From positions 1,883 to 65,882 of the forward strand of contig JAZUHE010000067.1 of the NCBI GenBank assembly GCA_045641565.1: 64,000 bases of DNA, in the 5' to 3' direction. Position 1 is the stretch's first letter. Every line of letters begins with the position of its first letter. The DNA comes from Acutalibacteraceae bacterium. Lineage in GTDB: Bacteria > Bacillota > Clostridia > Oscillospirales > Acutalibacteraceae. The notes under the pieces were generated by a model. That model did not search any database. It was not told the DNA's origin and was given only the letters and a program-made list of their open reading frames with translations. This document shows, in pieces, positions 26,128 to 47,322 of the stretch. The translations under genes and the position numbers were made by a program.

Positions 26128-28179
26128 ATGAGCTACTTAGAATTAGATATTAAACGAAGCTATGTCAGTTATGGTGATCATAATATTGCCAATTCATTTT
26201 TGGTACCTGCACTTAGGCATACGAGAATATATAAACGTAGTGTTGGCTTTTTTTCTTCCGGCGTATTTTCTCCAATTATTGACGGTATTGTTGCTCTATC
26301 GAGAAACAACGGCTATATCCAATTGATAGCGAGTCCTAACCTAAACGAGGAAGACATAAGGGCGATAGACCTTGGATATCAGAAAAGAGAAGATATTATA
26401 TCAGGTGCGGTTGAACGTGATTTTGAAAATGCTCTTGAAGAATTAGATGATGCAAGGTTACAGTTATTGGCATCATTGATAGCAAATGGTACAATGGATA
26501 TAAAAATCGCTGTAACAAATGGAACTGGCATATATCATGACAAGTTGGGGATCATAGAGGATTTTGACGGAAATGTACTTGTGTTTTATGGGTCTCCAAA
26601 TGCCAGCTTAAGCGGGTATCAAAACAATTATGAGAAAATCCGTGTGGTGAAAAGTTGGGTTATCTCGGATAAAGAAAGCATTGAAGATGAAGAGAATGAA
26701 TTTGATGCATTGTGGAATGATACCAATCCCCATGTAAAAGTTTACGATTATTCGATATCAGCGAAATTGAAAATTCTGTCTGTGTTGGAGAATCGGAAAA
26801 GTGCTGCTGATAGAGATGAAAAGAAAGCACCAATTGTCTTAAGGGACTATCAAAATGCTGCGATTAATGCGTGGGTTAAAAATGATTTTCACGGTTTTTA
26901 TGTTATGGCAACTGGTACCGGAAAAACATGGACAGCTATTTTCTCAGCCATTAAACTTATGGATACAATACCGGTGATGACTGTAATCTGCGCACCGTAT
27001 AAGCATCTGGTTAGACAGTGGGCTGAGGATGTGGAAAAGGCTGTTCCGGGCGCAATATTAATTTTGGTATCTTCTGAAAATCAAGGATGGGAACAACAGT
27101 TATCACAAGCAATTGTGCGACAGCGTTTACATAAGGAAACAAAAATTATTGTCATTTCTACGATTAAATCATTTTATCTTGAACGGTTTCAAAATACAAT
27201 CAAAAAATCAAAACAGGAAAAACTATTAATTGTTGATGAAGCTCATCGATTTACAAAACGACCAGAAGCCTTAAGTCAACAATTTCAGTATATGCTCGGA
27301 TTAAGTGCTACCCCTTTTAGTGGCAAAGACACTGCTAAAGGAAATGAGCTTATGGCGTTTTTTGGCGGGCAAGTTTTCAGCCTTCCTATTGAAGAAGCAT
27401 TGAAACGGGGTTTTTTGGTAAAATACAATTACTACCCTATTTTTGTAAATGCAACTGTAGATGAGGAAGAGCGTTTTAGAAAGAAAAGTGCGCAGATTGC
27501 TGGTTGCTTTAGGAATAACGTATGTATTGATCCTGAAAATCTGGCTTTGTACCTACGCGCCCGTCTACGAATCATTTCCATGGCACAGGAAAAACTTGAC
27601 CGCATTGAAGAAATTTTTGCGTATATAAAAGAGAAGGATCACTTTATTGTATACTGCGGAGATGGCAGACTTTATGATGATAATAATGAGGAAATCCGGC
27701 ACATTCAATTTGTAAAACGCAAGTTATCTGGTCTTGGATTTAAAACGAGCCAGTTTACAGCATCAGAGGATATGGCAGAACGTATGGATCTGGTAGATGC
27801 ATTTAACGAAGGCGCAATCGATGCGCTTGCTGCAATAAGGTGCTTGGATGAAGGAATCAACATTCCTTCTATAAATGGAGCCCTGATCCTATCAAGCAAC
27901 GATGATTATAGGGAATTCGTACAACGCAGAGGACGTATTCTGAGAACTTACAAAAATAAAGAATATGCGAATATCTACGATGTAATTGTTTTGCCGTCGT
28001 ATGATACTACAAAAATGGCAGAAATAGAACTTAGGCGATATTACGAATATGCAAGATTGGCATACAATTCTGAGGAACTGCTGACAAAACTTGAAAATAT
28101 TGCTGCGGATTATGGACTGGAGCTTGACGACTTTATTGCCACATTTGATGAAGGTAAGGAGGTAGACCTCGATGACTAA
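26128..28179 (+). CDS. PLD-family nuclease fused to an SF2 (ResIII/DEAH) helicase
   Basis: N-terminal HKD motif YHDKLGIIED...GSPNAS. Helicase motif I is ATGTGKTW, II is VDEAH, III is LSATP and VI is QRRGRILR. 683 aa with no extra C-terminal recognition domain. Confidence 0.85.
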   Translation: MSYLELDIKRSYVSYGDHNIANSFLVPALRHTRIYKRSVGFFSSGVFSPIIDGIVALSRNNGYIQLIASPNLNEEDIRAIDLGYQKREDIISGAVERDFENALEELDDARLQLLASLIANGTMDIKIAVTNGTGIYHDKLGIIEDFDGNVLVFYGSPNASLSGYQNNYEKIRVVKSWVISDKESIEDEENEFDALWNDTNPHVKVYDYSISAKLKILSVLENRKSAADRDEKKAPIVLRDYQNAAINAWVKNDFHGFYVMATGTGKTWTAIFSAIKLMDTIPVMTVICAPYKHLVRQWAEDVEKAVPGAILILVSSENQGWEQQLSQAIVRQRLHKETKIIVISTIKSFYLERFQNTIKKSKQEKLLIVDEAHRFTKRPEALSQQFQYMLGLSATPFSGKDTAKGNELMAFFGGQVFSLPIEEALKRGFLVKYNYYPIFVNATVDEEERFRKKSAQIAGCFRNNVCIDPENLALYLRARLRIISMAQEKLDRIEEIFAYIKEKDHFIVYCGDGRLYDDNNEEIRHIQFVKRKLSGLGFKTSQFTASEDMAERMDLVDAFNEGAIDALAAIRCLDEGINIPSINGALILSSNDDYREFVQRRGRILRTYKNKEYANIYDVIVLPSYDTTKMAEIELRRYYEYARLAYNSEELLTKLENIAADYGLELDDFIATFDEGKEVDLDD

Positions 28180-28345
28180 AGAAGAAGCAGTAATATACAT
28201 GATTTCGAAGGTGGAAGAGGTTGAGCGTGAACGATTGGCGTCACATTTTTCCATTGATGCTACAAAGCAAAAAAAAGAAGCTGTAGATGGAATTCTTAAA
28301 GCATTAAAGGAGGTTCAGCTCGATAATGAAGATCAGCAGGATTGA
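28172..28345 (+). CDS. Small 57-aa ORF (not in the supplied track), function unknown
   Basis: The ATG at 28172 overlaps the helicase stop (GATGACTAA) and is preceded by AAGGAGG 9 nt upstream. The ORF ends at the TGA at 28343-28345, 20 nt inside the next gene. Translation: MTKEEAVIYMISKVEEVERERLASHFSIDATKQKKEAVDGILKALKEVQLDNEDQQD. Confidence 0.5.
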   Translation: MTKEEAVIYMISKVEEVERERLASHFSIDATKQKKEAVDGILKALKEVQLDNEDQQD

Positions 28346-30314
28346 GTTTGAAAACTTTAGAAATTTTCGTGATCACTGCCGCATGGATTTTCCTACAGAT
28401 GGCAGCGTTTCTGTAATCTATGGTCCTAACGGAGTAGGAAAAACTACGCTACACCAGTTGTTCCAGTGGATTTTTTACGGAGATGTACATTTTAATAAAA
28501 CAGCAAGTAATAAAATGTATAATTTAGAGTTTGAACAAGCAGCTAGCTTTCATCAGGTGTTTTCTGTGCTGGGAGTAATTGATTTCGAACACCCTAACGC
28601 AGATGGTGTTATAGAATATTACTCGCTTCGAAGAGAATGGATATATCAAAAAGAGCAGCAGGAATCAAAAATTATTAACAAGAAATTTAGACTGTCTAAA
28701 AAAATCGGAGATGATTGGAAAACAGTATCTGATGATCCGGTTAATATCATAGAACAAATATTACCCAGCGGCTTATCTCAGTATTTCTTTTTTGATGGTG
28801 AAAGCATGATAGCTGACCTGAGCCAGAAAGGTAGAGATTCTGCAAAATCGCTCAGGAAAGCCTTGTACTCCATTTTTGATTTGGATATATATGAACAAGC
28901 ACTCGTACATATAGGGACACAGAGCAGCGGAACCTCTACTGTGTTAGGTAAACTGTATTTTAGTCGTGCAGAAAACAGCACTAACGCTGATGTAATTAAA
29001 GCACGAGGCCTATATCGCCAAGCACTAAAATGGGTAGAGGATCTAGAAGAAAAGATTAGATCTTGCAATGTAGCGATAGAGAGATATAAGCAGGAAGCTC
29101 AGGAGTTATCCGAACAAATTGGAAGTAATCCGTCTCAGGAAACATTGGAAAAGCGACGCAAAAAAGCCAAAGATTCTATAAAAGCTCTTGAAACAGCCAT
29201 TCAGCGTGAGACGAAAGCTTTTGGCGAAACTATTATGGCAAATTATCCATATTTGTTGCTTGCACGCATGGTTGAAGAAGCACAGGTTCGAATCGGCCTC
29301 AAAGTTGAAGAAGAAAAGCTTTTACCAGGTCTGACAAAAGAATTGGTGCTTTCATTACTAAAAGAAAACACTTGTCTGTGCGGAAATCCAATTACAGATG
29401 CCGAGCGTACTTCACTAAATAATCTCCTTAAAATGTTCCCACCGCTATCATATAAGTATATTTATGACCAGTTCAAAAATAATGCTATCCGTTGGAGTAC
29501 AACATATGATAGCGAGGCTCTGCTGAAACACTTAAATGCAATTTTTGAATATAGAGATCAGATTGCAGAGCTTCAGATTGAAATTCATGATATTGATGAA
29601 GAACAGAAACAAGGAGAAAATGTAGATGCGCTGATAGCAAAGCGCGCAAAAGCTGAAGAATCACAGCGGTATTGGCGAAATGAACTAGAAAAAGTAACAA
29701 AGGATCTTGGACTACAAGATCAGATAAAAAAGCAACGTAAGAAGAAGCTTGATGAACTTTTGGCCGCCAATAATGCCAACAAGAGCATCGATGAACAAAT
29801 CGCCATAATGGAAGCAGTCAGAATTTACTTCGACAGCACGTTGAAGTCGTCTGCAAAGCATTATAGTGAAACCCTTCGTTCAACCATTCAGGAATTACTT
29901 GGGAAGATGCTCACCAGCACGAGACAGGTTAGTATGACTGAAAAATTCGAACTGAGTGTAAAAGATAGCTTTGGTGATGAAGCAAAATCAGAAGGACAAT
30001 TTGCAGTTGTTTCATTTGCTTATATTGGAGGAATATTTAAGCTGCTTGGTGATGTGCCTGAATTGAAAGGAAAAGAATTCCCCCTAATTTTGGATGGACC
30101 GTTTTCAAAGTTGGATGTTATTCAGCGGCAGAACGTTATTAACACAATTCCGGCATATGCCCCGCAGGTCATATTGTTTTCGAAAGATGATATTAATAAT
30201 TGCTTTGGAGAAACAGGCATTGAAAATGTATGGACCATTTATAGCAATGCGGAAAGAAATGTATCTCGTGTAGAAAAAGGTTATAATCCGGAGGTGTTCA
30301 TCATAAATGCTTGA
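28326..30314 (+). CDS. SMC/ABC-like AAA ATPase, paralogous to DndD
   Basis: Walker A GPNGVGKTT, FFFDGESM motif, a long coiled-coil middle with CLCGNP, and a D-loop/Walker B region FPLILDGPFSKLD. The layout matches the DndD at 33342. Confidence 0.8.
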   Translation: MKISRIEFENFRNFRDHCRMDFPTDGSVSVIYGPNGVGKTTLHQLFQWIFYGDVHFNKTASNKMYNLEFEQAASFHQVFSVLGVIDFEHPNADGVIEYYSLRREWIYQKEQQESKIINKKFRLSKKIGDDWKTVSDDPVNIIEQILPSGLSQYFFFDGESMIADLSQKGRDSAKSLRKALYSIFDLDIYEQALVHIGTQSSGTSTVLGKLYFSRAENSTNADVIKARGLYRQALKWVEDLEEKIRSCNVAIERYKQEAQELSEQIGSNPSQETLEKRRKKAKDSIKALETAIQRETKAFGETIMANYPYLLLARMVEEAQVRIGLKVEEEKLLPGLTKELVLSLLKENTCLCGNPITDAERTSLNNLLKMFPPLSYKYIYDQFKNNAIRWSTTYDSEALLKHLNAIFEYRDQIAELQIEIHDIDEEQKQGENVDALIAKRAKAEESQRYWRNELEKVTKDLGLQDQIKKQRKKKLDELLAANNANKSIDEQIAIMEAVRIYFDSTLKSSAKHYSETLRSTIQELLGKMLTSTRQVSMTEKFELSVKDSFGDEAKSEGQFAVVSFAYIGGIFKLLGDVPELKGKEFPLILDGPFSKLDVIQRQNVINTIPAYAPQVILFSKDDINNCFGETGIENVWTIYSNAERNVSRVEKGYNPEVFIINA

Positions 30315-30822
30315 GTTTACAACTGATGCCTACTTAAGAGGACCTATTTGGCACGATACACTTGAAAAATTGGTTGGAAGCGTCTTTGAAACACAGTGGG
30401 ATGTATTTGCTCTTTGTATTTCAATTGGAATGATGTACGATAAGCAAATCGAAACAGAAAATATGGTTCCTGATGATTACGAAATGGAACCGCACTCTGT
30501 TGGTAGAAATGTCCTTGGAAAAGCCCAAAATAGAGCATTGTTGGAATTTATGTTTCAAACAGCTATGGTAACAACAAAGCATTTGGATCTTGATGAGGAC
30601 GCACGATTAGAATTAGCTTTTAACGATAATGCAAAACCAGACTTCAATCCAGTGACATTTTTAACAAAATTTGCAAATTATGGTATCTCAAAGCTTTCTG
30701 AGATAATTGCTGATACCGAGGATGTTGAACTTTTGGAATCTATGATGACTTTCCTCAACTCCACCTATGAATCAGGAGCAGAAATTATTGAAGACGAATT
30801 AGAAATTGAAGATTTCGAGTGA
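30307..30822 (+). CDS. 171-aa acidic-tailed protein with a DndE-like helix layout (hypothetical)
   Basis: It overlaps the ATPase gene by 8 nt and has a GGAGGTG RBS. The motif order ALCISIGM...GRNVLG...LLEFMFQ...FANYGISKL parallels DndE's KLAISMSL...NRQTITG...YKSLIE...HLDRGARIL. The C-terminus is Glu/Asp-rich. Confidence 0.65.
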   Translation: MLEFTTDAYLRGPIWHDTLEKLVGSVFETQWDVFALCISIGMMYDKQIETENMVPDDYEMEPHSVGRNVLGKAQNRALLEFMFQTAMVTTKHLDLDEDARLELAFNDNAKPDFNPVTFLTKFANYGISKLSEIIADTEDVELLESMMTFLNSTYESGAEIIEDELEIEDFE

Positions 30823-30842: not shown

Positions 30843-30897
30843 TTGACAAAATGCGACAAGCGTGATATACTTAAGTACATACTTAAGTATATCACGC
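30843..30897 (+). promoter_or_regulatory. Promoter plus 38-nt palindrome (operator and/or terminator) upstream of dndB
   Basis: TTGACA (30843-30848), a 17-nt spacer, then TATACT (30866-30871). Perfect 17-nt inverted arms GCGTGATATACTTAAGT / ACTTAAGTATATCACGC span 30860-30897 and are followed by TTTGCTTTG. Confidence 0.55.
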
Positions 30898-30915: not shown

Positions 30916-31977
30916 ATGAATTTTACATACCGTTTCCCAGCTGTTCGTGGCGTTCAAGCTGGAAGAGAATATTATATTTCAATGGTTCCATTAAAGTTGT
31001 TATCTCGCTTGTTTCCTGCCGAAGAAGAAATTGTGCTTCCTGAATATCGGGCACAGCGTAGAATAAACGAAGCCCGTATTCCTGAAATTAAAAAATATAT
31101 TTTAGATAACCGGGATACTTATGTCTTTTCTGCCCTTTCTGCATCTATAGATGGTGAATTTAGGTTTGCTTCAATTGACGACGTAGATGTTGGCATCTTG
31201 GAAGTTGATATGGAATCTGTTTTTCTAATCAACGATGGGCAGCATCGTAAGGCTGCGATTTTAGCAGCGATGGAAGAAGATGCATCATTAGAAAAAGAAA
31301 CTATCTCAATTGTGTTTTTTGCAGATGAAGGACTCGCGCGCAGCCAACAGATGTTTACGGATTTAAATAAACATGCTGTAAAAACGTCCAATTCTCTTTC
31401 CACATTATACGATGCACGTGATGAGATTGCAGTTGCAACCAAAAATGTGATTGATGCTATTCCGTTCTTTAAGAAATACACCGATAAAGAACGAGATATC
31501 CTTGGAAAAAACTCGTCCAATCTGTTTACTTTGAACATGATCTATAAGGCAAATCAGAAAATACTTCACGGCGAAAAATGCAGCGAAAATGACGAGCGTT
31601 TTTTGATTGATTTCTGGAGGTTGATTTCCGAAAACATTATTGAGTGGCAAGAAGTTCTGAACAAAACCCTCACCAAAAAAGCTCTTAGAGAAAATTATAT
31701 CGTGGCGTTAGCAATAACAATTAGCGCCTTTGGAAGGCTGGGAAGACATTTTTATGAGCACCGTGATTCAATGGACTCATACCTTACTAAGCTTAGATCT
31801 ATCGACTGGTTGCGAACAAACGAAGCGTGGGTAGGTCGAACAATCCGACAGAACGGGAAAGTCTTAAATAGTGAAGAAGCGGTTTTATTAACGTGCTCAC
31901 TGATAAAGCAAAAACTTGGTATTTCTCTAACAAAAGAGGAACAGCAAAAAGAAAAAATGATGTTGGAGAAGAAATGA
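30916..31977 (+). CDS. dndB: DNA phosphorothioation protein DndB (DGQHR domain)
   Basis: INDGQHRKAAILAA (DGQHR motif). 353 aa, directly upstream of dndC. Confidence 0.85.
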   Translation: MNFTYRFPAVRGVQAGREYYISMVPLKLLSRLFPAEEEIVLPEYRAQRRINEARIPEIKKYILDNRDTYVFSALSASIDGEFRFASIDDVDVGILEVDMESVFLINDGQHRKAAILAAMEEDASLEKETISIVFFADEGLARSQQMFTDLNKHAVKTSNSLSTLYDARDEIAVATKNVIDAIPFFKKYTDKERDILGKNSSNLFTLNMIYKANQKILHGEKCSENDERFLIDFWRLISENIIEWQEVLNKTLTKKALRENYIVALAITISAFGRLGRHFYEHRDSMDSYLTKLRSIDWLRTNEAWVGRTIRQNGKVLNSEEAVLLTCSLIKQKLGISLTKEEQQKEKMMLEKK

Positions 31978-31978
31978 T

Positions 31979-33352
31979 ATGAAATATACGGGAGAATTTG
32001 CTGCATACGAGGACATCATTCAAGAAATGAAACTCGTATATCAAAATGATAAACGTCCATGGATGATTGGATTCAGCGGTGGTAAAGATTCGACGCTATT
32101 ATGTTGTCTTGTCATGGAAATGCTCGAACGACTTCCGGCAGAAAAGCGCAATAAAACAGTTTATATTGTTTCATCAGACACCATGGTTGAAAATCCAATT
32201 GTGCGAGATTATATGCATAGAATGTCAACTATGATTAATGAAGCTGGAGCGCGCCTAAATGTAAAAGCGGACATCATTTATCCCAAGGTCGAGGATACGT
32301 TCTGGTGCAAAACGATAGGACTTGGCTATCCTACACCGGAAGCTCCGGGATTTCGCTGGTGTACAGAACGTCTGAAGATTCATCCGATGAACGCGTATAC
32401 ACTCAATACGATCAAAAATAACGGTGAGGTTGTATTGCTTTTGGGTGTGCGCAAGGCTGAAAGCACATATAGGGCAAATAATATTCGCTCAAGAGAAATT
32501 GAGGGCAAGCTCCTTGTTCCACATAATGATATAGAGAATGCCTATGTATATAATCCACTCACAGAAATTCCAAATGAAGAAGTATGGAAGTTCTTGTTGA
32601 AGGGAGATGCTAAAACGCCCTGGGGCTCTGATAATAAATATCTTTTTTCACTCTATCAAGGGGAAAATCTCGGTGAAGAAGCCAGTGTTATCGGAGAAAT
32701 CGATGAGAACAAGATTCCGGTAACCGGGAATTCGCGTTTCGGTTGCTGGATTTGCACAATGGTAAAGGAAGACAAATCTCTGAAAACATTCATTGATCGC
32801 GGAGAAGAGTGGCTCATTCCTTTGCGTGATTACCGAAATTGGATGCTTTCCATGCGCACAACTCCTGGAGCACGCGAGTATAAACGCAGAAATGGCTCCA
32901 TGTATCGCAAAGCTGATGGATCATTAGGTGAAGGACCATTTACTATGGAGACTAGAAAAGAAATGCTTCGCCGCCTTCTTCAGCTTGAAGTGGATACAGG
33001 TTTATCACTTATCACAATTGAAGAGCTAAAGCAAATCGATATAATGTGGGATAATGAAGGAGACCTAACGCGAAGAAGCTTGGTGGAAATATACAACGAT
33101 GTAACTGGCAAAACACTTCCTTGGGATCAGTATAAGACGCCGATTTTTCCTGCAGATGTTATCGATGAAATCCAACAGCAATGCATAGAAAATAACGTTG
33201 AATTTGAACTGATTTCTAAGTTGATAGTTGAAATTGAAGCTAACAAATACTATACAAAAGGATCTATAATGACAAAGGCATTTGATCGAATAATCAATCA
33301 AGGATGGCTTCACTTTGACAGTATCGAGAAGGGTTTAAAAAATGATAATTGA
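31979..33352 (+). CDS. dndC: DNA phosphorothioation protein DndC (PAPS-reductase-like ATP pyrophosphatase)
   Basis: The PP-loop is GFSGGKDST and the Fe-S Cys motif is RFGCWICT. 457 aa. Confidence 0.92.
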   Translation: MKYTGEFAAYEDIIQEMKLVYQNDKRPWMIGFSGGKDSTLLCCLVMEMLERLPAEKRNKTVYIVSSDTMVENPIVRDYMHRMSTMINEAGARLNVKADIIYPKVEDTFWCKTIGLGYPTPEAPGFRWCTERLKIHPMNAYTLNTIKNNGEVVLLLGVRKAESTYRANNIRSREIEGKLLVPHNDIENAYVYNPLTEIPNEEVWKFLLKGDAKTPWGSDNKYLFSLYQGENLGEEASVIGEIDENKIPVTGNSRFGCWICTMVKEDKSLKTFIDRGEEWLIPLRDYRNWMLSMRTTPGAREYKRRNGSMYRKADGSLGEGPFTMETRKEMLRRLLQLEVDTGLSLITIEELKQIDIMWDNEGDLTRRSLVEIYNDVTGKTLPWDQYKTPIFPADVIDEIQQQCIENNVEFELISKLIVEIEANKYYTKGSIMTKAFDRIINQGWLHFDSIEKGLKNDN

Positions 33353-35429
33353 TAAGATTGTACTTTATAATTTCGGCTCGTATGAGGGTGAAAACGTCTT
33401 TGAGACTCATGGTACCGATGGAAAAAGCATCATATTAATCGGCGGAAAAAACGGGGCCGGTAAAACGACGCTTTTTACAGCAATGCGTATATGCTTATAT
33501 GGCTATATGAGCATGGGTTACAAAAATCTAAATTCGTTCTATTACCGAGCCATAACAAAATTGATTAACAATGAGGCAAAAATGATTCGTCCTGCGAAAT
33601 CTCATGTGCTGATGACTATTGAACTCAGCAATGGTAGAGGCGTTGATACATATGAGCTTTTGCGCGAATGGACTCTGACGGATTCATTGCTCGAAGAGTT
33701 TTGCGTCCTTAAAAATGGAATCCTTCTAAACGAGCAAGAAATCGCCGATTTTGAAAAATACCTTCTGTCAGTAATTCCACCAGAATTATTCAATTTGTAT
33801 TTTTTTGATGGAGAAAAAATAGCTGATTTCTTTTTGGAAGAAGGCAGTAATGCCAGGATAAAAAGTGCATTTTTAACTTTATGTGGATATGATACATTCG
33901 ACATTATGCGAAAAAACTTTAGGCGGATAAGTACTGGAAAGGGGAAAACTGCGCCTGCTCTGGATGGGTATATTGCCGCAAAAGAATCTGTATCGGAAGC
34001 TAAAGAGAAATATTTAGCGCTGACAGAGCTACTGAAAAATTGCATAGGTGAAATAGATTCATGCGAAGCTGAAATCACTGCATTAGAAAAAGAATACTAT
34101 CAAAAAGGTGGTATTACTCAAGAAGAATGGGATTTAAAAATTTTCACTCTAAAAGATGAAGAAAAGAAGCGAGAAAACTGGAACGCGCTCTTAAAAAAAT
34201 GGGCAAATGAGTTGATTCCATTTCTAATGATTAGGGACCAAATCGTTGCTTTAAAAAATCAAATTGAACGCGAGAATAAGGGACAAAAATATATAAACTT
34301 CTGTGAAGTTATTAATACACCAGAAATAACAGCAATTATTGGATCTCGAACAAACGAATTGCAGCAAATCGCATTCCAACAATTTGGCGATACAAACGAG
34401 CCCATTCTTAACCTTTCTATTGAGCAAAGCGCCATCCTTTTAGCTCAGATTAATCAGATCCTTGCGTTTGATTCAGAAAAGATTGGAAAATGCCGCAGGG
34501 CAATAAGAAATTCACAGGCTCTTACAGCTAAGCTGCGTCAGGAACTGGACAGCAGCAGTGTGTCTTCTGTTCAAGAATATATGCAAAAACGAGCACAATT
34601 GTTTGAAAAAAAGAGCCTTTTGTTAGTGCAGCGAGTAGAATTAGAGCAAAGATTGGTAGATCAGCAAAGTATCGTTATACAAGCCGAGTCCACATTATTA
34701 AGTGTGCAGACCAGATTAGAAGCAGATTTAAAAAAGGCATCGATAACAGATATTTCTGCGAAATCTATCGTTATGCTTGATAAATTACAGCAGGTGCTTT
34801 TTCAGAGGCAGATTGAAAAGGTCGAAGCGTTTTTCAGAAATGAAATTCGTACGCTTATGCGCAAGACGCATTTTATAGATGATATGCGGATTGACGATAG
34901 CTTTAATACGCATTTATATCGCCGAGAAACCATATCCACGAGTAAAATCGTTGAGATTCTAAACACGAATTCCGAAGAGCACGTTATTGCCATGCTGGGT
35001 GAGGCCGCCGTCAAGGAACTGCAAGATATTACTGGCAAAAAAACATTGGAAGAAATCGCTACTGTATGCCAAGATATCAATAAAGATTCTATTGATATTC
35101 TTATTGAAATCGATAAAGCAACGTTATCAAATGGCGAAAAGCAAATATTTATTATGGCACTTTACCATTCGCTCGTACAATTGTGTAATCATGAGATACC
35201 GTTCATAATCGATACACCATTTGCACGAATTGATACTGAGCATAGAAGAAATATTTCTGAACACTTTTTCCGCCAGCTAAATGGACAAGTATTCATTCTT
35301 TCTACCAATGAAGAAATCAGCTCTGAACATGTGCACATTATCGAAGATAAGATTGCTGCGACCTATATATTAGAAAATGCTGATAACAAGCGAACTACTG
35401 TAGTAAGCGGAAAGTATTTTGAGGTGTAA
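33342..35429 (+). CDS. dndD: DNA phosphorothioation protein DndD (SMC-like ATPase)
   Basis: Walker A GGKNGAGKTT, YFFDGEKIADFF, a coiled-coil middle, and IPFIIDTPFARIDTEHR. It overlaps dndC by 11 nt. Confidence 0.9.
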   Translation: MIIDKIVLYNFGSYEGENVFETHGTDGKSIILIGGKNGAGKTTLFTAMRICLYGYMSMGYKNLNSFYYRAITKLINNEAKMIRPAKSHVLMTIELSNGRGVDTYELLREWTLTDSLLEEFCVLKNGILLNEQEIADFEKYLLSVIPPELFNLYFFDGEKIADFFLEEGSNARIKSAFLTLCGYDTFDIMRKNFRRISTGKGKTAPALDGYIAAKESVSEAKEKYLALTELLKNCIGEIDSCEAEITALEKEYYQKGGITQEEWDLKIFTLKDEEKKRENWNALLKKWANELIPFLMIRDQIVALKNQIERENKGQKYINFCEVINTPEITAIIGSRTNELQQIAFQQFGDTNEPILNLSIEQSAILLAQINQILAFDSEKIGKCRRAIRNSQALTAKLRQELDSSSVSSVQEYMQKRAQLFEKKSLLLVQRVELEQRLVDQQSIVIQAESTLLSVQTRLEADLKKASITDISAKSIVMLDKLQQVLFQRQIEKVEAFFRNEIRTLMRKTHFIDDMRIDDSFNTHLYRRETISTSKIVEILNTNSEEHVIAMLGEAAVKELQDITGKKTLEEIATVCQDINKDSIDILIEIDKATLSNGEKQIFIMALYHSLVQLCNHEIPFIIDTPFARIDTEHRRNISEHFFRQLNGQVFILSTNEEISSEHVHIIEDKIAATYILENADNKRTTVVSGKYFEV

Positions 35430-35430
35430 T

Positions 35431-35808
35431 ATGGTTTTTAAGATTAGAACTTCAAAAAAAACAATGACTATTTTTGAAGAGATGGCTGCCAGCACAAATT
35501 ATGCACCGTTCATTCTTTCTAAGCTTGCCATTTCGATGTCTCTCAAACTTGGAGGTCCATTACAAGAGAACGATTTTCATACGGATACATATGGACTGGA
35601 ATTAAACAGACAAACAATTACTGGTGAATGGGACGAGCTATACAAAAGCCTGATAGAAATGCACGAAGGGCAACACATATCTGATGATGATTATTTTCAG
35701 AAATACCTGAAAGCTCATCTGGATCGTGGAGCTCGGATTCTTTATAGTGAGTTTAAGTATAATAACGATTTCCTAATTGGTCTTTTGAGCCATAAAACCG
35801 GTATATAA
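35431..35808 (+). CDS. dndE: DNA phosphorothioation protein DndE
   Basis: About 125 aa, starting 1 nt after the dndD stop, with a GAGGTG RBS. Size and position are typical of DndE. The ORF track begins at an upstream TTG (35419). Confidence 0.75.
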   Translation: MVFKIRTSKKTMTIFEEMAASTNYAPFILSKLAISMSLKLGGPLQENDFHTDTYGLELNRQTITGEWDELYKSLIEMHEGQHISDDDYFQKYLKAHLDRGARILYSEFKYNNDFLIGLLSHKTGI

Positions 35809-35822
35809 AAGAGGTGGATTGT

Positions 35823-37793
35823 ATGTCAAACATCAAAGGTACTATCATAAACGTAAAAGATTTTCTCAGCCAAGAAGTCGTTAGTATAAAGATTAGAGGC
35901 ACAGAAGAGAAGGTTTTTGAACTGGAAAAAGAACGAATATATGTCATTCCGGATTTTCAACGTGAGATTCGATGGTTGCCAGAAAACCTTATAGAACTGA
36001 TGAATGACATCTCACGCCGTGAAAAATTCCTTGGAAATCTAATTTTAACCAGGAATGAAAATAAAAAGTATTCTATAATTGATGGCCAGCAAAGGACGTC
36101 TATGTTGCTCATGCTAATTCAATTCGCTGTGACGAAGTATCGCGATGAGCTTCCAGCGCCCCCAGAGTTATGCATAATTGAGAATGAGAGCTTTCCGGAA
36201 TTTGGCGTTTTTCAAAAACACTGCTATTCATTTTCAGGAATGGAACCTGAACTTGCAGAAGAAGTGAAATCAAGCGACCAATATAAACAGGCTGAACGTT
36301 TTCAACTGTTATGGCAAACCATTGAGGATTCTGAAATCATTGCAGATTCATCATCCGCGCGAGATTTTTTAACCAACCTCTACCGTTGTGAATTTAATGT
36401 CATTTTGTCGGAAGAAGATTCCACGAATTATAGCATTGAGTATTTTCTGGATGTAAATTTAAAAGGCATAAAGTTAGACACTGAAGATATTTTTAAAGGT
36501 TATTTGTTTCATTTAGATCCAAGCGATGCATCACGTCAACTGTGGGTAGAAATGAAACGTAAATCATTGGAATTCAATGAGCTGTGCAAAACTTCACATT
36601 CCAAAAGCGATTGTTATCCGCTGATGAAATTGATAGAACATTTTTTATATTGCTATATCTATGACAACGAAAAATACAAGGATATCGTTTTTGGAGAGGA
36701 CTTCTGCCTAAAACAAAAAGTGCAAATAGACCGAACTATGCATTATACTGGAGAGCACATACTAAAGGTTATAAACAACAACAGATTTATTCGAGAGATG
36801 CTGGAAAAGATAATTAAATTCTTAACTATCGCTATCGATGTTGTGTCTAATTCGAGTCCTAGCACAAAATTAAAAGGGCTTTTTGTTGTGGACGATCCTA
36901 AAGAAAAAATAGATGACATTGATATATCTAATTTTTACACTTTTATAAAAATGGTTCTTATGGATAGAAAGGTAATTGTATCGAAAGCTGTTGTAATAAA
37001 ATACGCGCTAAACACGTTAATGAACACTTCTGACAACCAAAAAGAATCATACAAAAAGTTATATGCAGTACAGATGTTTGTTACTCTGTTTTCGCTGTTT
37101 GAAAATAAAAAAGGAATTGAGCCTGTAGAAAAAATATTGAAAGCAGCCAATTGGGATGAGGAAATACGTACCGCTATTACCATCTATTGCAGTAAAGATG
37201 CTATCGAAGAACGTAAGCGCAGCGCAGAGTTTAAATATAGTACAAACCCCGATAATGAACAGCAGAGGTATCATAGTATTGCTCTAGCAGCAGTATACAA
37301 CTTTTTTGTTTTCGATAAAAGTAAATTGGGTGTAAAAAAAGGAAAAGCCACGGATCTTAATGTTTTTCTTACTAACGACGAATTATTCAGTGTAGAGCAT
37401 TTTATCGTCAACGATTCGTTCAAAAGCAAGGTTAAGTATACAGATGCAGAAGATTATTACGAGTATGAATACCCGGCAGATGTTAAAAAGTATGCGGCAT
37501 CTATTTTTAATTTTATTTACATTCCGAGGGAACTTAATAAAGATTTAGGCAATAAACCCATTATGGATAAGTTAGCTATAGTATCTGTAGCTTCAACATC
37601 CTGCGAATACTCCAAAGTTGTTATTGATGCGGCAAGAGAATCATTCGAAGCTTTGCCGGCAATAAAAAAAGGAGCCGACGAAGATAATAAACGCGCGTTG
37701 GATAGGTATTTTGCTTACGAATTCAAGCAGCAATATGCAAATTTCGTTTCAATAATACTGAAAAATATCGCAAAAAAGTTTTGTGTTACATAA
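35823..37793 (+). CDS. DUF262 (ParB-like NTPase) plus DUF1524 (His-Me finger nuclease) protein, GmrSD/SspE-like
   Basis: N-terminal IPDFQREIRW and IIDGQQRT motifs. C-terminal VEHFIVN...FNFIYIPRELNKDLGNKP (HNH-like). The ATG at 35823 lies 6 nt after GAGGTG and 14 nt after the dndE stop. Confidence 0.8.
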   Translation: MSNIKGTIINVKDFLSQEVVSIKIRGTEEKVFELEKERIYVIPDFQREIRWLPENLIELMNDISRREKFLGNLILTRNENKKYSIIDGQQRTSMLLMLIQFAVTKYRDELPAPPELCIIENESFPEFGVFQKHCYSFSGMEPELAEEVKSSDQYKQAERFQLLWQTIEDSEIIADSSSARDFLTNLYRCEFNVILSEEDSTNYSIEYFLDVNLKGIKLDTEDIFKGYLFHLDPSDASRQLWVEMKRKSLEFNELCKTSHSKSDCYPLMKLIEHFLYCYIYDNEKYKDIVFGEDFCLKQKVQIDRTMHYTGEHILKVINNNRFIREMLEKIIKFLTIAIDVVSNSSPSTKLKGLFVVDDPKEKIDDIDISNFYTFIKMVLMDRKVIVSKAVVIKYALNTLMNTSDNQKESYKKLYAVQMFVTLFSLFENKKGIEPVEKILKAANWDEEIRTAITIYCSKDAIEERKRSAEFKYSTNPDNEQQRYHSIALAAVYNFFVFDKSKLGVKKGKATDLNVFLTNDELFSVEHFIVNDSFKSKVKYTDAEDYYEYEYPADVKKYAASIFNFIYIPRELNKDLGNKPIMDKLAIVSVASTSCEYSKVVIDAARESFEALPAIKKGADEDNKRALDRYFAYEFKQQYANFVSIILKNIAKKFCVT

Positions 37794-41804: not shown

Positions 41805-42702
41805 ATGAAAAAAGATAATTTCACTTTTGATGGAAAAGAAAGATGTGAAACCGTCATGGTTGAGAATGAAAAAATAGAATTATACGAAGATCAGCCGATC
41901 CGGACTGCGTGGAACGAAGTCGAAGAAGAATGGTATTTTTCTGTCGTTGATACTATCCGTGTTTTGACCGACAGCAAAGATCCATTGGCATACTGGAGAA
42001 AGCTGAAACAGCGGTTAATTAGCGAAGGCAATGAAACCGTGACAAATTGTCACGGTTTGAAAATGACTGCTGCCGACGGGAAAAAACGTCTTACCGACGT
42101 TGCCACCACGGAGCAGCTTCTTCGCATCATCCAGTCCATCCCATCAAAAAAAGCAGAGCCGTTCAAAATGTGGCTGGCACAGGTCGGACGCGAGCGAATT
42201 GAAGAAACCATCGATCCTGAGCTGACGATTGAGCGAGCGCTGGAGATATATCTTAAAAAAGGTTATTCGCGGGAGTGGATCAATCAACGTTTACAGGCTA
42301 TCCAAGTACGCAAGGAACTAACCGACGCAGAACCGTGGCGTCAAGGAAGGCGTGGAATACGCAATCCTGACCGACGAGATCACCAAAGCGTGGTCAGGTA
42401 TGTCCACGCGGCAGTATAAAAACCTCAAAGGGCTGAAAAAGGAAAACCTGCGGGACAATATGTCTACGCTGGAGCTCGTGCTCAACATGCTAGCCGAGGC
42501 AACCACGACAGAACTTTCCAAAACACATGAGCCACAGGGCCTTGCGGAGAATCAGAGTATTGCCCGTCAGGGTGGGCAGATCGCCGGAAATGCACGGAAA
42601 GAAATCGAAGAAAACACTGGGAGACCTATAATTACATCTAAAAACGCCACAGAACTCAACGCCGTGGTGACAAAACTGATCGAGGAAACCAGCAAGGAAT
42701 AA
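41805..42702 (+). pseudogene. Bro-N / DinD-like (DNA-damage-inducible protein D-like) gene with a +1 frameshift
   Basis: The N-terminal part (41805-42419 ORF) and the C-terminal part (42352-42702 ORF) are consecutive pieces of one protein. The second frame is open from 42322 (PTQNRGVKEGVEYAILTDE...), which places the shift at about 42322-42340. Confidence 0.7.
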
Positions 42703-43742: not shown

Positions 43743-44609
43743 GTGCACAATATGATTAATAAAACCTCAATACGTTTTTTCGAAAATATCCCGGTACGCG
43801 CTGTTTGGGACGATGAAAGCTCCAAATGGTGGTTTTGTGCTATGGATATTGCCGAAGCACTGACAAAATCAAAAAATCCAAGGTCGTATTGGAATGCAAT
43901 CAAAAGGCGAAAAAATGAGTTGTCGACAATTTGTCGACAACTGAAATTAAAAGCGAAAGACGGCAAGTTTTACAATACCGATGTGGTAGATGAAAACAGC
44001 CTGAATACCGTTCTTGCACTTATTCCAAGCAAAAAATCCGATGTGTTCCAAAAGTGGATGAAAAACATGGAAACGTCGCTTGACGAGAAGAGTAAGCAAA
44101 AAGCCTATGAACTTTTTGAAAGCGGATTTATCGACAACATCGAAGTCGGCACGGCTAAAGGCTTGCAACAAATCCACGGCTATATTTTCGGCGGTCTTTA
44201 CGATTTTGCGGGACAGATCCGAACACTGAATATTGCAAAGGGCGGTTTCGCTTTTGCTCCAGCAATATACTTGGATGGAGCCCTTGCACATATTGAGGCG
44301 ATGCCGGAAAATACGCTGAATGAAATCGTGAGCAAATATGTGGAAATGAACGTGGCACATCCGTTCATGGAGGGTAACGGTCGCAGTACCCGCATCTGGC
44401 TTGACCTAATGCTGAAAAAGAACTTGAAAAAATGCGTGGATTGGAGCCAGATTGATAAGACGGAATACCTTGACGCCATGCGGGAGAGCGTGGATGATTC
44501 GCACCGGATATTTGAACTGTTGCAAAGCGCCCTGACTGATGATATCTATAACCGCGAGATCATTATGAAGGGCATAGACTATTCGTATTATTACGAGACA
44601 GAAGAATGA
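43743..44609 (+). CDS. Bro-N domain plus Fic (AMPylase/DOC) domain protein
   Basis: N-terminal [31 protein letters not shown] (Bro-N-like). The Fic motif is [23 protein letters not shown]. Confidence 0.8.
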
Positions 44610-45840: not shown

Positions 45841-47322
45841 ATGGTTTCCAAAGAACAGTTTTTAGTAATCCGACGATGTCATCAAAAAGGCATGACGGCA
45901 AACGAGATCGCACAAAAGGTCGGCGTGTCGGCACCGAGCGTTCGAAAATGGTGGAATGTCGAAGAAAAGACGTTCGATGAACTGATCCAAGGCAATATGG
46001 CCTATCTGGACAATTACCGAGAGTTCATTCTGAACATTCTCCGACTATGCCCACAAACACGGCAGACAAATATCCTGTATCGCCTGCAAGAAGAGTTCCC
46101 GGATTTTCATTGTCATAAGCAGACATTCTATCGGTATATGAAGATGCTGCGAGAACAGACGGGCTTTGAACAGTTTAATCACCGGAACACTTCGCCCCGT
46201 GAGGAAACACCGCCCGGCTATGAAGCACAGGTGGATTTCGGCCAGTTCAAAATGATGGATATGTATGGTAAAAATGTCCGCGTATATTTCTTCTGCATGG
46301 TACTGGCATATAGCCGAATGCACTACCTGTATTTTAGCCGAGAGCCGTTCACCACCCGCGAAGCCATCAAAGCACACGAATACGCTTTCTTGTATTACGG
46401 AGGCAGACCGCAGACCATTCTGTACGACCAAGATAAAGTGTTTGTTGTCAGCGAGAACTTCGGTAGTATTGTGCTTGTTCCAGCCTTTGAAGAATTCGCA
46501 CGAAACACTGGTTTTAGTGTTCGCCTATGCAGGCCGCATGATCCGCAGAGCAAAGGCAAAGTGGAGAGCTTCGTGAGATACGTCAAAGAGAGTTTTCTTA
46601 CCGGACGAATCTATACCGGCATTGACAACCTCAATAGCGCAGCACTGCGATGGCTGGATAATGAGGGCAATGGCACCACCAATCTCCGAACTCGCAAACC
46701 ACCAAGAGAACTATTCCGTGAAGAAATACGGCATCTGGAAAAGTTCTATGCTTCACAGTCGGAGCCGTCGATGGTGCGGAGTGTTTCGGATAAGTTCATG
46801 GTGAAAGTGGACTGGAGCAATTACGAATTGCCACATAACGTTGTGCGACCATTCGATCAGGTACGTATTGAGAATGAGTTCGGTATTCTGCTTTTCTACA
46901 AAGCCGGCAGCAACGAGCTGATTTACAAATGCAAGAAGCGCGAGACAGCCGGTGTGTCACCAACTGGAAAAGAAACAGAAAAGCCGGATTTTGTGGCCAG
47001 CAACTCCATTCGATATCGCTTTGCAGAGTATGACGTAATCGACGAATTTGTGGAGAGGCTATCGGAAGCGGAGCCAAGATACAAAAACGTGCAGTTCAAC
47101 CGGATCATTACACTGGCGAATTTGTACTCCACGGAGCAGTTAGCGGAAGCGATCGAATATTGCGTCAAAGTGAATCGCTGCAACGTTTCTGAAATCACAG
47201 CTTTTCTCATTTTTCGTCATGGTGACGATGTGGCAAAGAAACGACTTTCAAATAACGCTTATTACTATAATCGGAAACGAGCTGAAGAAATAAGGAGGGA
47301 GCAAGATGGCAAATATCTCTGA
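45841..47322 (+). CDS. istA: IS21-family transposase IstA
   Basis: N-terminal HTH and a DDE/rve core (QVDFGQF...YFFCMVLAYSRM...DQDKV...). 493 aa, with an AAGGAGG RBS. Confidence 0.9.
   Translation: MVSKEQFLVIRRCHQKGMTANEIAQKVGVSAPSVRKWWNVEEKTFDELIQGNMAYLDNYREFILNILRLCPQTRQTNILYRLQEEFPDFHCHKQTFYRYMKMLREQTGFEQFNHRNTSPREETPPGYEAQVDFGQFKMMDMYGKNVRVYFFCMVLAYSRMHYLYFSREPFTTREAIKAHEYAFLYYGGRPQTILYDQDKVFVVSENFGSIVLVPAFEEFARNTGFSVRLCRPHDPQSKGKVESFVRYVKESFLTGRIYTGIDNLNSAALRWLDNEGNGTTNLRTRKPPRELFREEIRHLEKFYASQSEPSMVRSVSDKFMVKVDWSNYELPHNVVRPFDQVRIENEFGILLFYKAGSNELIYKCKKRETAGVSPTGKETEKPDFVASNSIRYRFAEYDVIDEFVERLSEAEPRYKNVQFNRIITLANLYSTEQLAEAIEYCVKVNRCNVSEITAFLIFRHGDDVAKKRLSNNAYYYNRKRAEEIRREQDGKYL

Follow-up and report, generated by a model that had tools for sequence, protein, structure and literature searches.

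What does the gene placed directly behind dndE encode in this Acutalibacteraceae genome, and could its product read the phosphorothioate (PT) marks that its neighbours write? Two PT-sensing defence pairs have been described, in which DndI acts with IscS-DndBCDE and SspE acts with SspABCD (PMC11662687). Most dnd loci are devoid of DndFGH, and according to PMC10853773 the reader of the PT mark in such loci is still debated. We analysed a window of 64,000 nucleotides, which is the whole stretch of DNA under study (contig JAZUHE010000067.1, positions 1,883 to 65,882). An earlier note had singled out in it a GmrSD/SspE-like ORF, hereafter the target.

Gene organization of the locus

The target ORF starts with an ATG and covers 1971 nt including the stop codon, corresponding to 656 residues; the 657 residues previously given had counted the stop codon. 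We favoured this ATG over an upstream GTG at 35814, because Met1, Gly6 and Thr7 are invariant in the homologues. As the earlier note had described, the stop codon of dndE, ending at 35808, and the target start at 35823 are separated by a gap of 14 nt (aagaggtggattgt), which holds a ribosome-binding site (AAGAGGTGG) for the target. A search of the plus strand from dndB through the end of the target ORF found no terminator-like site, consistent with the previous claim that no terminator intervenes. The best sigma-70-like match of the region lies inside the 93-nt gap 5' of dndB; it is purely a consensus match, and the number of promoter-like matches across the region (53) equals that expected from shuffled sequences (52). 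The GC content of the target (0.35-0.37) is that of the pbe-dnd block (0.35-0.39), compared to 0.43-0.48 in the flanks and 0.47-0.49 in the next gene, which encodes a DUF2075 protein. Most likely, the target is co-transcribed with dndBCDE as the last gene of the operon.

The four genes preceding the target encode bona fide DndB, DndC, DndD and DndE. NCBIfam equivalogs identify the first three. DndE is recognized by its Pfam model, as its NCBIfam score of 54.4 bits stays below the cut-off of 71.85 bits. The window DndC matches the PADLOC DndC model at 7e-128 versus 1.7e-13 for the SspD model, and the partners of the target are of the Dnd rather than the Ssp type, as had been proposed. The locus lacks dndA.

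The operon had been regarded as a plain Dnd operon, but a Pbe/CxC module is located immediately upstream. In the cluster, PbeA, a small ORF at the PbeB position, the CxC protein PbeC and a protein at the PbeD position are joined to dndBCDE, an arrangement that agrees with known dnd-pbe loci. PbeABCD or CxC-ABC-ATPase systems were described by Xiong et al. 2019 (PMC6459918) and re-annotated in PMC10853773, where PbeB is characterised as a small, rapidly evolving protein. The 57-residue ORF between pbeA and pbeC has no family match in profile searches; it is found at the same place in L001-L003, three of the related loci, with 79-91% identity, and marginally in L009. The gene for the 171-residue protein is kept 3' of pbeC in about 20 related loci. 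We considered this protein as a DndE paralogue and rejected the idea, given that BLASTP found no similarity to the window DndE and that its TIGR04062 match is sub-threshold. The target itself matches no Pbe model of PADLOC, and different genes, at 26128-30822, account for the roles of PbeA to PbeD. Owing to the Pbe module directly 5' of dndBCDE, the target is not the sole candidate effector of the cluster.

Further defence genes, DUF2075/PDC-S41 and AIPR/AbiU, lie 3' of the target. They were considered as members of the same unit and discarded, because DUF2075 and AIPR follow the target only in L001 and the GC content of DUF2075 differs.

Features of the target and its neighbourhood in the window (all on the plus strand)
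Feature	Coordinates	Strand	Description and evidence
pbeA	26128..28179	+	PLD/HKD nuclease + SF2 helicase ("dnd_restrict_1"); PADLOC PbeA 1.5e-197; TIGR04095 1.5e-114; Pfam PLDc_2, ResIII, Helicase_C
57-aa charged ORF	28172..28345	+	PbeB position, bridges pbeA and pbeC; by position
pbeC	28326..30314	+	DndD-like CxC ABC ATPase, C-L-C in KENTCLCGNP; PADLOC PbeC 4e-70
171-aa protein	30307..30822	+	pbeD position (weak assignment); TIGR04062 dnd_assoc_4 E=0.0024, below cut-off, sole match
Candidate promoter of dndBCDE + target	30843..30871	+	sigma-70-like TTGACA-17-TATACT with TG, 11/12
dndB	30916..31977	+	DGQHR ParB-like regulator; Pfam DndB 4.7e-114; TIGR03233 5.6e-127
dndC	31979..33352	+	PAPS-reductase-like sulfurtransferase; TIGR03183 3.7e-114; PADLOC DndC 7e-128
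dndD	33342..35429	+	ABC/SMC-like ATPase; TIGR03185 3e-87, above cut-off; PADLOC DndD 2.8e-96
dndE	35431..35808	+	Pfam DndE 1.2e-22; PADLOC DndE
dndE-target spacer	35809..35822	+	14 nt, holds the RBS, without terminator
Target gene	35823..37793	+	656-aa DUF262 + putative His-Me-finger protein; unnamed Bacillota family of phosphorothioation loci
DUF262/GmrSD_N domain	35925..36509	+	ParB-like NTPase domain, aa 35-229; Pfam PF03235 E=1.4e-20
P43-D-F45-Q-R-E-I-R-W51	35949..35975	+	BLASTP aligns with PTYQRDYSW of a DndI-like protein
D87-G-Q-Q-R91	36081..36095	+	NTP-hydrolysis motif; invariant in 117/117 members
C-terminal His-Me (HNH-like) finger	37389..37553	+	aa 523-577; invariant residues, AF2 model, Foldseek

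Domains and predicted structure of the target

The DUF262 domain recognized in the earlier note is matched by the Pfam model PF03235 with 74.7 bits against a cut-off of 33.2 bits. The N-terminal core is also matched by the PADLOC HEC-06 and Orf5 (DndI) models, and the best PADLOC matches of the protein are the GmrSD-like HEC-06 models at its N-terminus. All motifs quoted before reside where they had been placed: FQREIRW at residues 45-51, DGQQRT at 87-92, VEHF at 524-527 and NFIYIPRELNKDLGNKP at 563-579. Residue F45 aligns with the tyrosines Y25 of DndI and Y30 of SspE, which are the PT-sensing residues of these two proteins, and the DGQQR motif is needed for the NTPase activity of both DndI (R87A mutant) and SspE (PMC11662687).

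The DUF1524 signature assigned to the C-terminus held in one respect and failed in the other: the Pfam DUF1524 model (GmrSD_C, PF07510) found no match at E<=10 with either the whole protein or its C-terminal 256 residues, whereas invariant residues and fold support a His-Me finger. PF07510 is carried by none of the listed homologues in their precomputed Pfam annotation, and no NCBIfam model matches the target. The finger consists of S-V-E525-H526-F, an inserted hairpin of ~35 residues, F-N563-F-I-Y-I-P and L-N572-K-D-L-G-N577. In the AF2 model (pLDDT 89.4, pTM 0.86), the conserved residues are borne by two strands (523-526 and 564-567) and a helix (569-575). Conservation and model together support a C-terminal His-Me finger with candidate catalytic His and Asn residues.

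Fold search of the PDB using Foldseek revealed that the model most closely resembles SspE (PDB 7DRS), with an E-value of 5e-10 over both domains, followed by further SspE matches to 6JIV (9e-7) and, for the C-terminal domain, to 7DRI (E about 1e-4); 7DRS and 7DRI each have a probability of 1.00. BrxU (7P9M) is matched at 6e-4, and the significant PDB fold matches are limited to SspE and BrxU, in line with the GmrSD/SspE two-domain architecture previously suggested. The structural alignment of the target and SspE has about 12-13% identity. The global TM-scores reach only about 0.3, a low value that is to be expected when domain orientations differ. The DndI structure (9JFL) is absent from the top 50 fold matches of the model. 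Compared to the fold, the sequence matches in the PDB are confined to the DUF262 core: the family profile and the N-terminal domain as queries hit 20yv, SspE and BrxU, the two best profile matches being 20yv (1e-4) and 6JIV (SspE, 3e-3) over a core of ~70 residues. As an SspE N-terminal query matches 20yv at 5e-35, 20yv is apparently an SspE homologue.

A compact family in gut Bacillota

The target belongs to a compact, discrete and unnamed full-length family of gut Clostridia/Bacillota with at least 698 homologues, all of about 650 residues; 287 clusters (50% identity) reach E<=1e-30. In 117 full-length members sharing 35-99% identity, P43, Q46, R47, E48, W51, the DGQQR motif, E525, H526, N572 and K583 are invariant, in addition to N563, which is kept in 116 of the 117. 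Position 45 is always aromatic, with Phe in 73 members and Tyr in 44. A tblastn search of plasmids with the target returned short matches to the DUF262 core only and no family member. The family is missed by the tested DndI and SspE profiles of PADLOC 2.0 and by Pfam DUF1524, and NCBIfam gives it no name either.

Linkage to dnd genes across relatives

We examined the loci of family homologues in 42 species-representative genomes. At least one of dndB, dndC, dndD and dndE lies within 10 kb of the homologue in 28 of the 42, and within 1.6 kb in 25 of these 28; the junctions are often 4-nt gaps or overlaps. Two further loci (L004 and L020) adjoin DndH, and L004 is also beside a dndA homologue. 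Altogether, 71% of the species-level loci are PT-linked, as are 22 of the 27 (81%) for which each flank extends over 4 kb or more. The family is therefore not the clade free of dnd and ssp association that the earlier note had allowed for. No ssp-type partner gene was seen in the related loci; the co-occurrence is with Dnd-type rather than Ssp-type genes. For comparison, dnd or ssp genes are present in only about 6% of gut genomes, according to the abstract of PMC12914056.

The gene order varies. The homologue may be located 3' of dndE, between dndE and dndA (L010 and L030), between pbeD and dndB (L036, L038 and L042, at 25-26% identity), directly 5' of dndC, or divergent from dndB or dndC (L013, L015, L024 and L039). 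The linkage persists down to 25% identity, with or without the Pbe module.

Comparison with DndI, SspE and GmrSD/BrxU

The pairing of a DUF262-HNH protein with DndBCDE had been thought uncharacterised; it was in fact described in 2024 as the IscS-DndBCDE-DndI system of Salmonella, in which DndI has DUF262 and DUF1524/HNH domains (PDB 9JFL; Tang et al. 2024, PMC11662687). DndI is ORF5 of the dpt/dnd cluster of Salmonella enterica Cerro 87, and the supplementary table of that paper includes dnd genomes of Clostridium and Ruminococcus (PMC11662687). Similar to DndI, the target is a two-domain protein with a DUF262 domain (DGQQR NTPase) and a putative HNH/His-Me domain, adjoins dndBCDE and a second restriction module (DndFGH for DndI, Pbe for the target), and has no dndA in its locus; in both proteins, the PxYQR motif bears an aromatic residue. 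Moreover, the homologues in L004 and L020 follow dndH, as does dndI (L043-L046).

The target differs from DndI in having Phe at the position of Tyr25, and its family occurs in Bacillota, compared to Enterobacteria for DndI. The PADLOC Orf5 models match only residues 35-103 of the target (9e-15), whereas the control DndI-like protein of L045 is matched by PDLC02701 over positions 93-596 of 596 (2e-221). DndI-like proteins carry Pfam GmrSD_C, which the target lacks. Aligning the target family with the DndI-like C-terminal part by hhalign gave a probability of 1%, and BLASTP of the target against the same part found no match; among PDB sequences, 9JFL was not matched by the family profile even at E<=10. 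As DndI was represented by a proxy, namely two DndI-like genes with frameshifts that were found in Logan contigs (L045 and L046), these comparisons rest on a two-sequence C-terminal profile together with the PADLOC Orf5 models. Residues 20-98 of 9JFL, recovered from an alignment, returned as a query only fragments of at most 135 residues; no dndI was found 3' of dptH in E. coli genomes. The Salmonella contigs stop inside dndI.

SspE (PDB 6JIV, 7DRS and 7DRI) is the best structural match of the target, and both predicted domains have an SspE-like fold. The two proteins would also share the logic of a PT-linked NTPase combined with a nickase. SspE partners SspABCD, whereas the target stands with DndB, DndC, DndD and DndE, a double-strand-type PT machinery. 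The PADLOC SspE model covers only 19 residues of the target (E=0.0025), and SspE is longer (771 versus 656 residues). Judged by sequence, the target family is orthologous to neither DndI nor SspE, whose profiles match only the DUF262 core of ~70 residues.

GmrSD/BrxU proteins (PDB 7P9K and 7P9M) share with the target the superfamily architecture, the fold and the DGQQR motif. The target differs in leaving the Pfam DUF1524 model unmatched; in addition, its family keeps close company with dnd genes and, unlike GmrSD/BrxU, is neither free-standing nor BREX-linked.

Proposed function

We propose, with a probability of roughly 60%, that the target is a PT-coupled restriction effector of the SspE/DndI kind, encoded by the last gene of the operon and guided by the marks that DndBCDE write. 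It is probably a PT-sensing NTPase/nickase and would add a new lineage to an established type of protein, with predicted PT sensing, predicted NTPase and nickase activities and a predicted anti-phage function. In the proposed mechanism, DndBCDE and a cysteine desulfurase encoded elsewhere would write PT marks on the host DNA, and the ParB-like DUF262 NTPase of the target (PxFQRExxW and DGQQR) would read them. NTP hydrolysis would then gate the C-terminal His-Me-finger nickase, which might damage unmarked invading DNA. The logic could be either PT-activated, as in SspE, or PT-released, as in DndI. The target would work beside the Pbe module and not necessarily depend on it, similar to DndI beside DndFGH in Salmonella. 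Several observations stand against this proposal: by sequence the family is recognized as neither DndI nor SspE, hhalign gave only 1% probability, the Pfam DUF1524 model does not match, five well-flanked homologues have no dnd gene nearby, and the target carries Phe where DndI and SspE have their PT-sensing tyrosine. In addition, the neighbouring Pbe module might itself be the principal effector.

A more far-reaching version is put forward only tentatively. Following SspE and DndI, the family might be a third GmrSD-like NTPase-nuclease lineage independently recruited and dedicated to PT systems, specific to Bacillota, serving as the main PT reader/effector of Dnd in gut Clostridia and possibly using a self/non-self logic unlike both.

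As the pairing of DndBCDE with a DUF262-HNH protein has been known since 2024, no new principle is involved. Gut Bacillota commonly use PT-based defence, and the dnd-welded DUF262-His-Me family provides a concrete candidate for the PT reader/effector there. A profile of the family, if added, would alter the annotation of such loci. With its Phe/Tyr position, the family would also add another natural form of the PT-sensing DUF262 pocket to the two in SspE (PT-activated) and DndI (PT-released), with which it could be compared.

Alternative readings

Alternatively, the target might act independently of PT, as a GmrSD/BrxU-like type IV (modification-dependent) enzyme that cuts modified-base phage DNA, resides in one defence island together with dnd and has to tolerate PT-DNA. 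The significant BrxU fold match and the GmrSD-like HEC-06 models as best PADLOC matches would fit such an enzyme, as would the continuation of the window cluster into the unrelated DUF2075/PDC-S41 and AIPR/AbiU genes. Five well-flanked homologues (L014, L017, L026, L032 and L041) have no dnd gene nearby: L032 is beside a HARE-HTH-Mrr type IV enzyme, L017 is beside DpdF/DpdH-like genes, as is the homologue of L019, and L041 is a fragment. The linkage is thus strong and not obligatory, and a PT-independent activity is possible. Nevertheless, the share of PT-linked loci, the overlapping or 4-nt junctions, the variety of gene orders and the persistence to 25% identity together are far tighter than co-residence in an island would produce. 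Homologues set between dndE and dndA, and the occurrence of DUF2075 and AIPR behind a homologue in L001 only, likewise speak against a type IV enzyme, which we consider unlikely.

It is similarly improbable that the target serves the Pbe/CxC system (PbeA-D) as an accessory nuclease subunit rather than being an autonomous partner of DndBCDE. A PbeA, PbeC or PbeD-like gene is also present in 22 of the 28 dnd-linked loci, and in L036, L038, L042 and L028 the homologue starts -12 to +8 nt from the stop codon of a pbeD-like gene, suggesting translational coupling. However, homologues occur with dndCDE(A) in five loci whose available flanks showed no Pbe gene (L010, L013, L015, L030 and L037), in addition to the two that accompany DndH, and in the window the whole of dndBCDE stands between pbeD and the target. 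Moreover, the searched text passages of PMC10853773 describe PbeABCD/CxC systems devoid of a DUF262 component and name no ParB/DUF262-HNH protein in the Pbe/CxC neighbourhoods.

We regard it as very improbable that the target chiefly regulates or limits PT modification in the manner of DndB, as a ParB-family protein whose nuclease is secondary or devoted to self-DNA surveillance. In favour of such a role, DndB is likewise of the ParB superfamily, homologues fill the dndB slot 5' of dndC in three loci where no dndB was found (L012, L023 and L028), and the Aravind group regards SspE as the counterpart of DndB in Ssp systems. Against it, the window also holds a canonical dndB, SspE and DndI act as effectors among the characterised relatives, and the family-wide invariance of the His-Me residues points to selection for nuclease activity.

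A family of DUF262-His-Me proteins at phosphorothioate loci

The gene located 3' of dndE, hereafter the target, belongs to a new, separate family of DUF262-His-Me proteins at phosphorothioate (PT) loci, which is typical of gut Clostridia and unnamed in every library searched. The open reading frame is real and intact. From its ATG start it codes for 656 residues; the 657 residues given in the earlier note had included the stop codon. Its N-terminus MSNIKGT is conserved among homologues, with Met1, Gly6 and Thr7 invariant, which assigns the start to this ATG instead of the upstream GTG at 35814. A spacer of 14 nt containing AAGAGGTGG separates it from the end of dndE at 35808, and no terminator-like site occurs on the plus strand from dndB through the end of the target. 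The sequence motifs quoted in the earlier note were all found in the protein.

Residues 35-229 correspond to GmrSD_N/DUF262 (Pfam, 1.4e-20). The proposed two-domain architecture of the GmrSD/SspE type holds, but its DUF1524 part has no Pfam counterpart: neither DUF1524 nor GmrSD_C matched even at E<=10, and NCBIfam gave no match to the target. The assignment of a C-terminal nuclease thus rests on conservation, the AlphaFold model and Foldseek. Glu525, His526, Asn572 and Lys583 are invariant in 117 family members, and Asn563 is kept in 116. In the confident AlphaFold model (pLDDT 89.4, pTM 0.86), the conserved C-terminal residues map to two strands (residues 523-526 and 564-567), separated by a hairpin of ~35 residues, and to a helix (residues 569-575). 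Foldseek against the PDB yielded six significant matches only (E<=0.001), namely five chains of SspE (7DRS, 5e-10; 6JIV, 9e-7; three chains of the isolated C-terminal domain in 7DRI, about 1e-4) and one of BrxU (7P9M, 6e-4). Position 45 in the DUF262 domain is aromatic in every member, being Phe in 73/117 and Tyr in 44/117.

Homology search retrieved 698 proteins at E<=0.001, the best 120 of which are mostly full length (about 650 residues) and carry DUF262 as their only precomputed domain. The family profile, searched against 1.84 billion representatives, reached 287 clusters at E<=1e-30, 1,090 at E<=1e-10 and 12,196 at E<=1e-3. The target family is a compact full-length family within the large DUF262 superfamily.

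Organization of the pbe-dnd super-locus

Eleven closely packed plus-strand genes, from pbeA through the AIPR/AbiU gene, include the target. The earlier note recognized the dnd link correctly, but left unmentioned a complete-looking Pbe/CxC restriction module (26128-30822) immediately 5' of dndB and in the same orientation. With this module, the locus is a pbe-dnd super-locus and has two candidate effectors.

Features in and around the pbe-dnd super-locus (window coordinates)
Feature	Position	Strand	Remarks
pbeA	start 26128	+	PLD/HKD + SF2 helicase; PADLOC PbeA, 1.5e-197; TIGR04095
57-aa ORF, PbeB position	28172-28345	+	highly charged; overlaps pbeA end and pbeC start
pbeC	after 57-aa ORF	+	DndD-like ATPase, C-L-C motif; PADLOC PbeC, 4e-70
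171-aa protein, PbeD position	ends 30822	+	only a sub-threshold TIGR04062 match
Promoter-like match, best of the region	30843-30871		gap upstream of dndB
dndB, dndC, dndD, dndE	between 171-aa gene and target	+	
Target	35823-37793	+	DUF262 and predicted His-Me finger
DUF2075/Schlafen-group-3 helicase	from 37812	+	18-nt gap after target; PADLOC PDC-S41, 8e-279
AIPR/AbiU protein	to 41760	+	22-nt gap after DUF2075 gene
First Bro-N gene	41805-42419		followed by overlapping 116-aa ORF; may be frameshifted
Second Bro-N gene	43743-44609		Bro-N + Fic/DOC fusion
IS21-type pair	45841-47986		istA (rve integrase, 493 aa) + istB (IstB_IS21 ATPase, 226 aa)

In the re-annotation of the module by the Aravind group (PMC10853773), PbeA combines an HKD nuclease with an SF2 helicase, PbeB is small and disordered, PbeC is an ABC ATPase of the CxC type, and PbeD is a cognate of DndE. 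The 57-aa ORF has no family match, and it is kept in position and at 79-91% identity in three homologous loci (L001-L003) and barely in a fourth (L009), which fits PbeB as a 'rapidly evolving small protein'. A tblastn search with the DndA of locus L010 found no cysteine desulfurase (dndA/iscS-like) in the 64-kb window; therefore the Dnd system must use a desulfurase encoded elsewhere, similar to Salmonella IscS-DndBCDE, which likewise lacks a dndA homologue beside the dnd genes.

Between pbeA and the target, both included, the GC content is 0.35-0.39; it is 0.43-0.48 in the flanking housekeeping DNA and 0.47-0.49 in the DUF2075 gene, so the target shares the composition of the pbe-dnd block, whereas the DUF2075 gene does not. 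As the DUF2075 and AIPR/AbiU genes accompany the target in only one of the related loci (L001), they are probably separate defence cargo. Two Bro-N-domain genes follow, and the IS21-type pair, which comes shortly after the defence cluster, may represent the boundary of an island.

Comparison with DndI and SspE

The arrangement had been regarded as an uncharacterised hybrid, a claim of novelty outdated by DndI. Known first as ORF5 from the dpt cluster of Salmonella Cerro 87 (Xu et al. 2010, PMC2978375), DndI is a DUF262 + DUF1524/HNH protein that protects against phage together with IscS-DndBCDE (Tang et al. 2024, PMC11662687). Its ATPase needs the DGQQR motif (R87), and PT DNA stimulates this activity via a hydrophobic pocket with Y25; the protein nicks DNA through an HNH motif (N541) and is toxic to PT-deficient cells (PMC11662687). 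By contrast, SspE requires PT for activation. Passages of PMC10853773 on dnd neighbourhoods name HKD, HNH (as wHTH+SAD+HNH), REase, URI, HEPN and PIN nucleases, with no ParB/DUF262-HNH protein among them.

The target resembles DndI and SspE on paper, and yet by sequence is an orthologue of neither. The PADLOC models Orf5 (DndI), HEC-06 and SspE match only the ~70-residue DUF262 core of the target, whereas the control, a DndI-like protein from an enterobacterial dndFGH-dndI/dndEDCB locus (L045), matches Orf5 over its full length (2e-221) and contains Pfam GmrSD_C. With the DndI-like protein, BLASTP gave an alignment confined to the PxF/YQR..W motif, in which F45 lies opposite the DndI Tyr, and hhalign of the target family against the C-terminal 505 residues of that protein gave a probability of 1%. 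Among PDB sequences, the family profile reached SspE-type proteins weakly (1e-4, 3e-3) and BrxU at 0.34, but not DndI (9JFL), which is present in that library.

Two Salmonella contigs break off after about 63 codons of dndI (L043 10001-10190, L044 7496-7684). Frameshifts split the DndI-like gene of two related enterobacterial Logan contigs into pieces of 76+505 and 107+479 residues (L045 10001-11790, L046 7695-9486). E. coli genomes with dptH have no dndI after it.

Linkage of the family to dnd genes

Scanning a single genome for each GTDB species yielded 42 loci, nearly all from Clostridia or other Bacillota, which were annotated with window proteins and extra queries. The co-occurrence test suggested earlier revealed a dnd-associated clade: dndB/C/D/E lie within 10 kb of the homologue in 28/42 loci, 25 of these having the nearest dnd gene within 1.6 kb, often 4 nt off or overlapping. 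Two further homologues (L004, L020) are just 3' of DndH (PADLOC DndH, E=0), and the L004 contig end carries a dndA homologue. PMC12914056 gives dnd or ssp genes in about 6% of gut genomes. Where the flanks reach 4 kb or more on each side (27 loci), 22 are PT-linked, that is, near dnd genes or DndH. It is unlikely that the target is a PT-independent type IV enzyme. One homologue that is an exception to the linkage (L032) adjoins a HARE-HTH-Mrr type IV enzyme.

The linkage persists over gene orders and deep divergence. In the window and in 12 loci the gene lies 3' of dndE; L010 and L030 have it between dndE and dndA, L018 has it 3' of dndA, and in L013, L015, L024 and L039 it is divergent from dndB or dndC. 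At 25-26% identity, it sits between a pbeD-like gene, whose stop it overlaps, and dndB (L036, L038, L042). The super-locus also raises the reading of the target as an accessory Pbe subunit, which is improbable; homologues occur with dndCDE(A) in L010, L013, L015, L030 and L037, where Pbe genes were undetected in the available flanks, so the target is not simply a Pbe subunit. In three loci the homologue is directly 5' of dndC, in the dndB slot (L012 4439-6442, L023 9968-11956, L028 4379-6388), where neither dndB nor, with phmmer, dndE was found; the DUF262-nuclease may have replaced DndB in these, and a DndB-like regulatory role for the target, which is encoded alongside dndB, is the least likely reading.

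Two dndCDE-target-dndA loci adjoin an extra stand-alone PAPS-reductase-domain gene with a weak BrxP-like match (L010 4606-5667, minus strand; L013 8808-9923, plus strand), which in L013 is directly 5' of the homologue on the same strand. In L010, dndA is followed by a NERD + UvrD helicase and a 904-residue unknown protein.

Proposed mechanism

We propose, as the most likely reading, that the target is a PT-sensing nuclease. DndBCDE and a housekeeping cysteine desulfurase would write PT marks on host DNA. The target would bind DNA and sense PT through its DUF262 pocket (P43, F45, Q46, R47), which might modulate NTP hydrolysis at DGQQR; hydrolysis would in turn gate access to the His-Me finger (H526, N563, N572), leading to nicks in invading DNA that lacks the marks. 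PT could either activate the target, as in SspE, or, as with DndI, free the target from self DNA.

Exceptions and broken copies

In L017 (2728-9875) and L019 (1683-8815), the homologue lies 3' of a block of four genes encoding a DpdF-like helicase, a 271-residue protein, a DpdH-like ATPase and a 228-residue protein. No dnd genes were detected in the available sequence, which in L019 stops 470 bp past the gene; pairing with a non-PT (Dpd-like) system is a further possibility for the family. In L014 and L026 no partner could be recognised near the homologue. That some homologues stand alone, with no dnd genes close by, is a weak hint of a resting state that is non-toxic and SspE-like.

The homologue is split into two or three ORFs in L029 (9989-11882), L033 (9986-11948) and L021 (1932-3974), which are probable pseudogenes. 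On the short L021 contig only dndD and dndE are seen beside the split copy, and those of L029 and L033 adjoin apparently intact pbe-dnd genes; therefore loss of the gene is tolerated.
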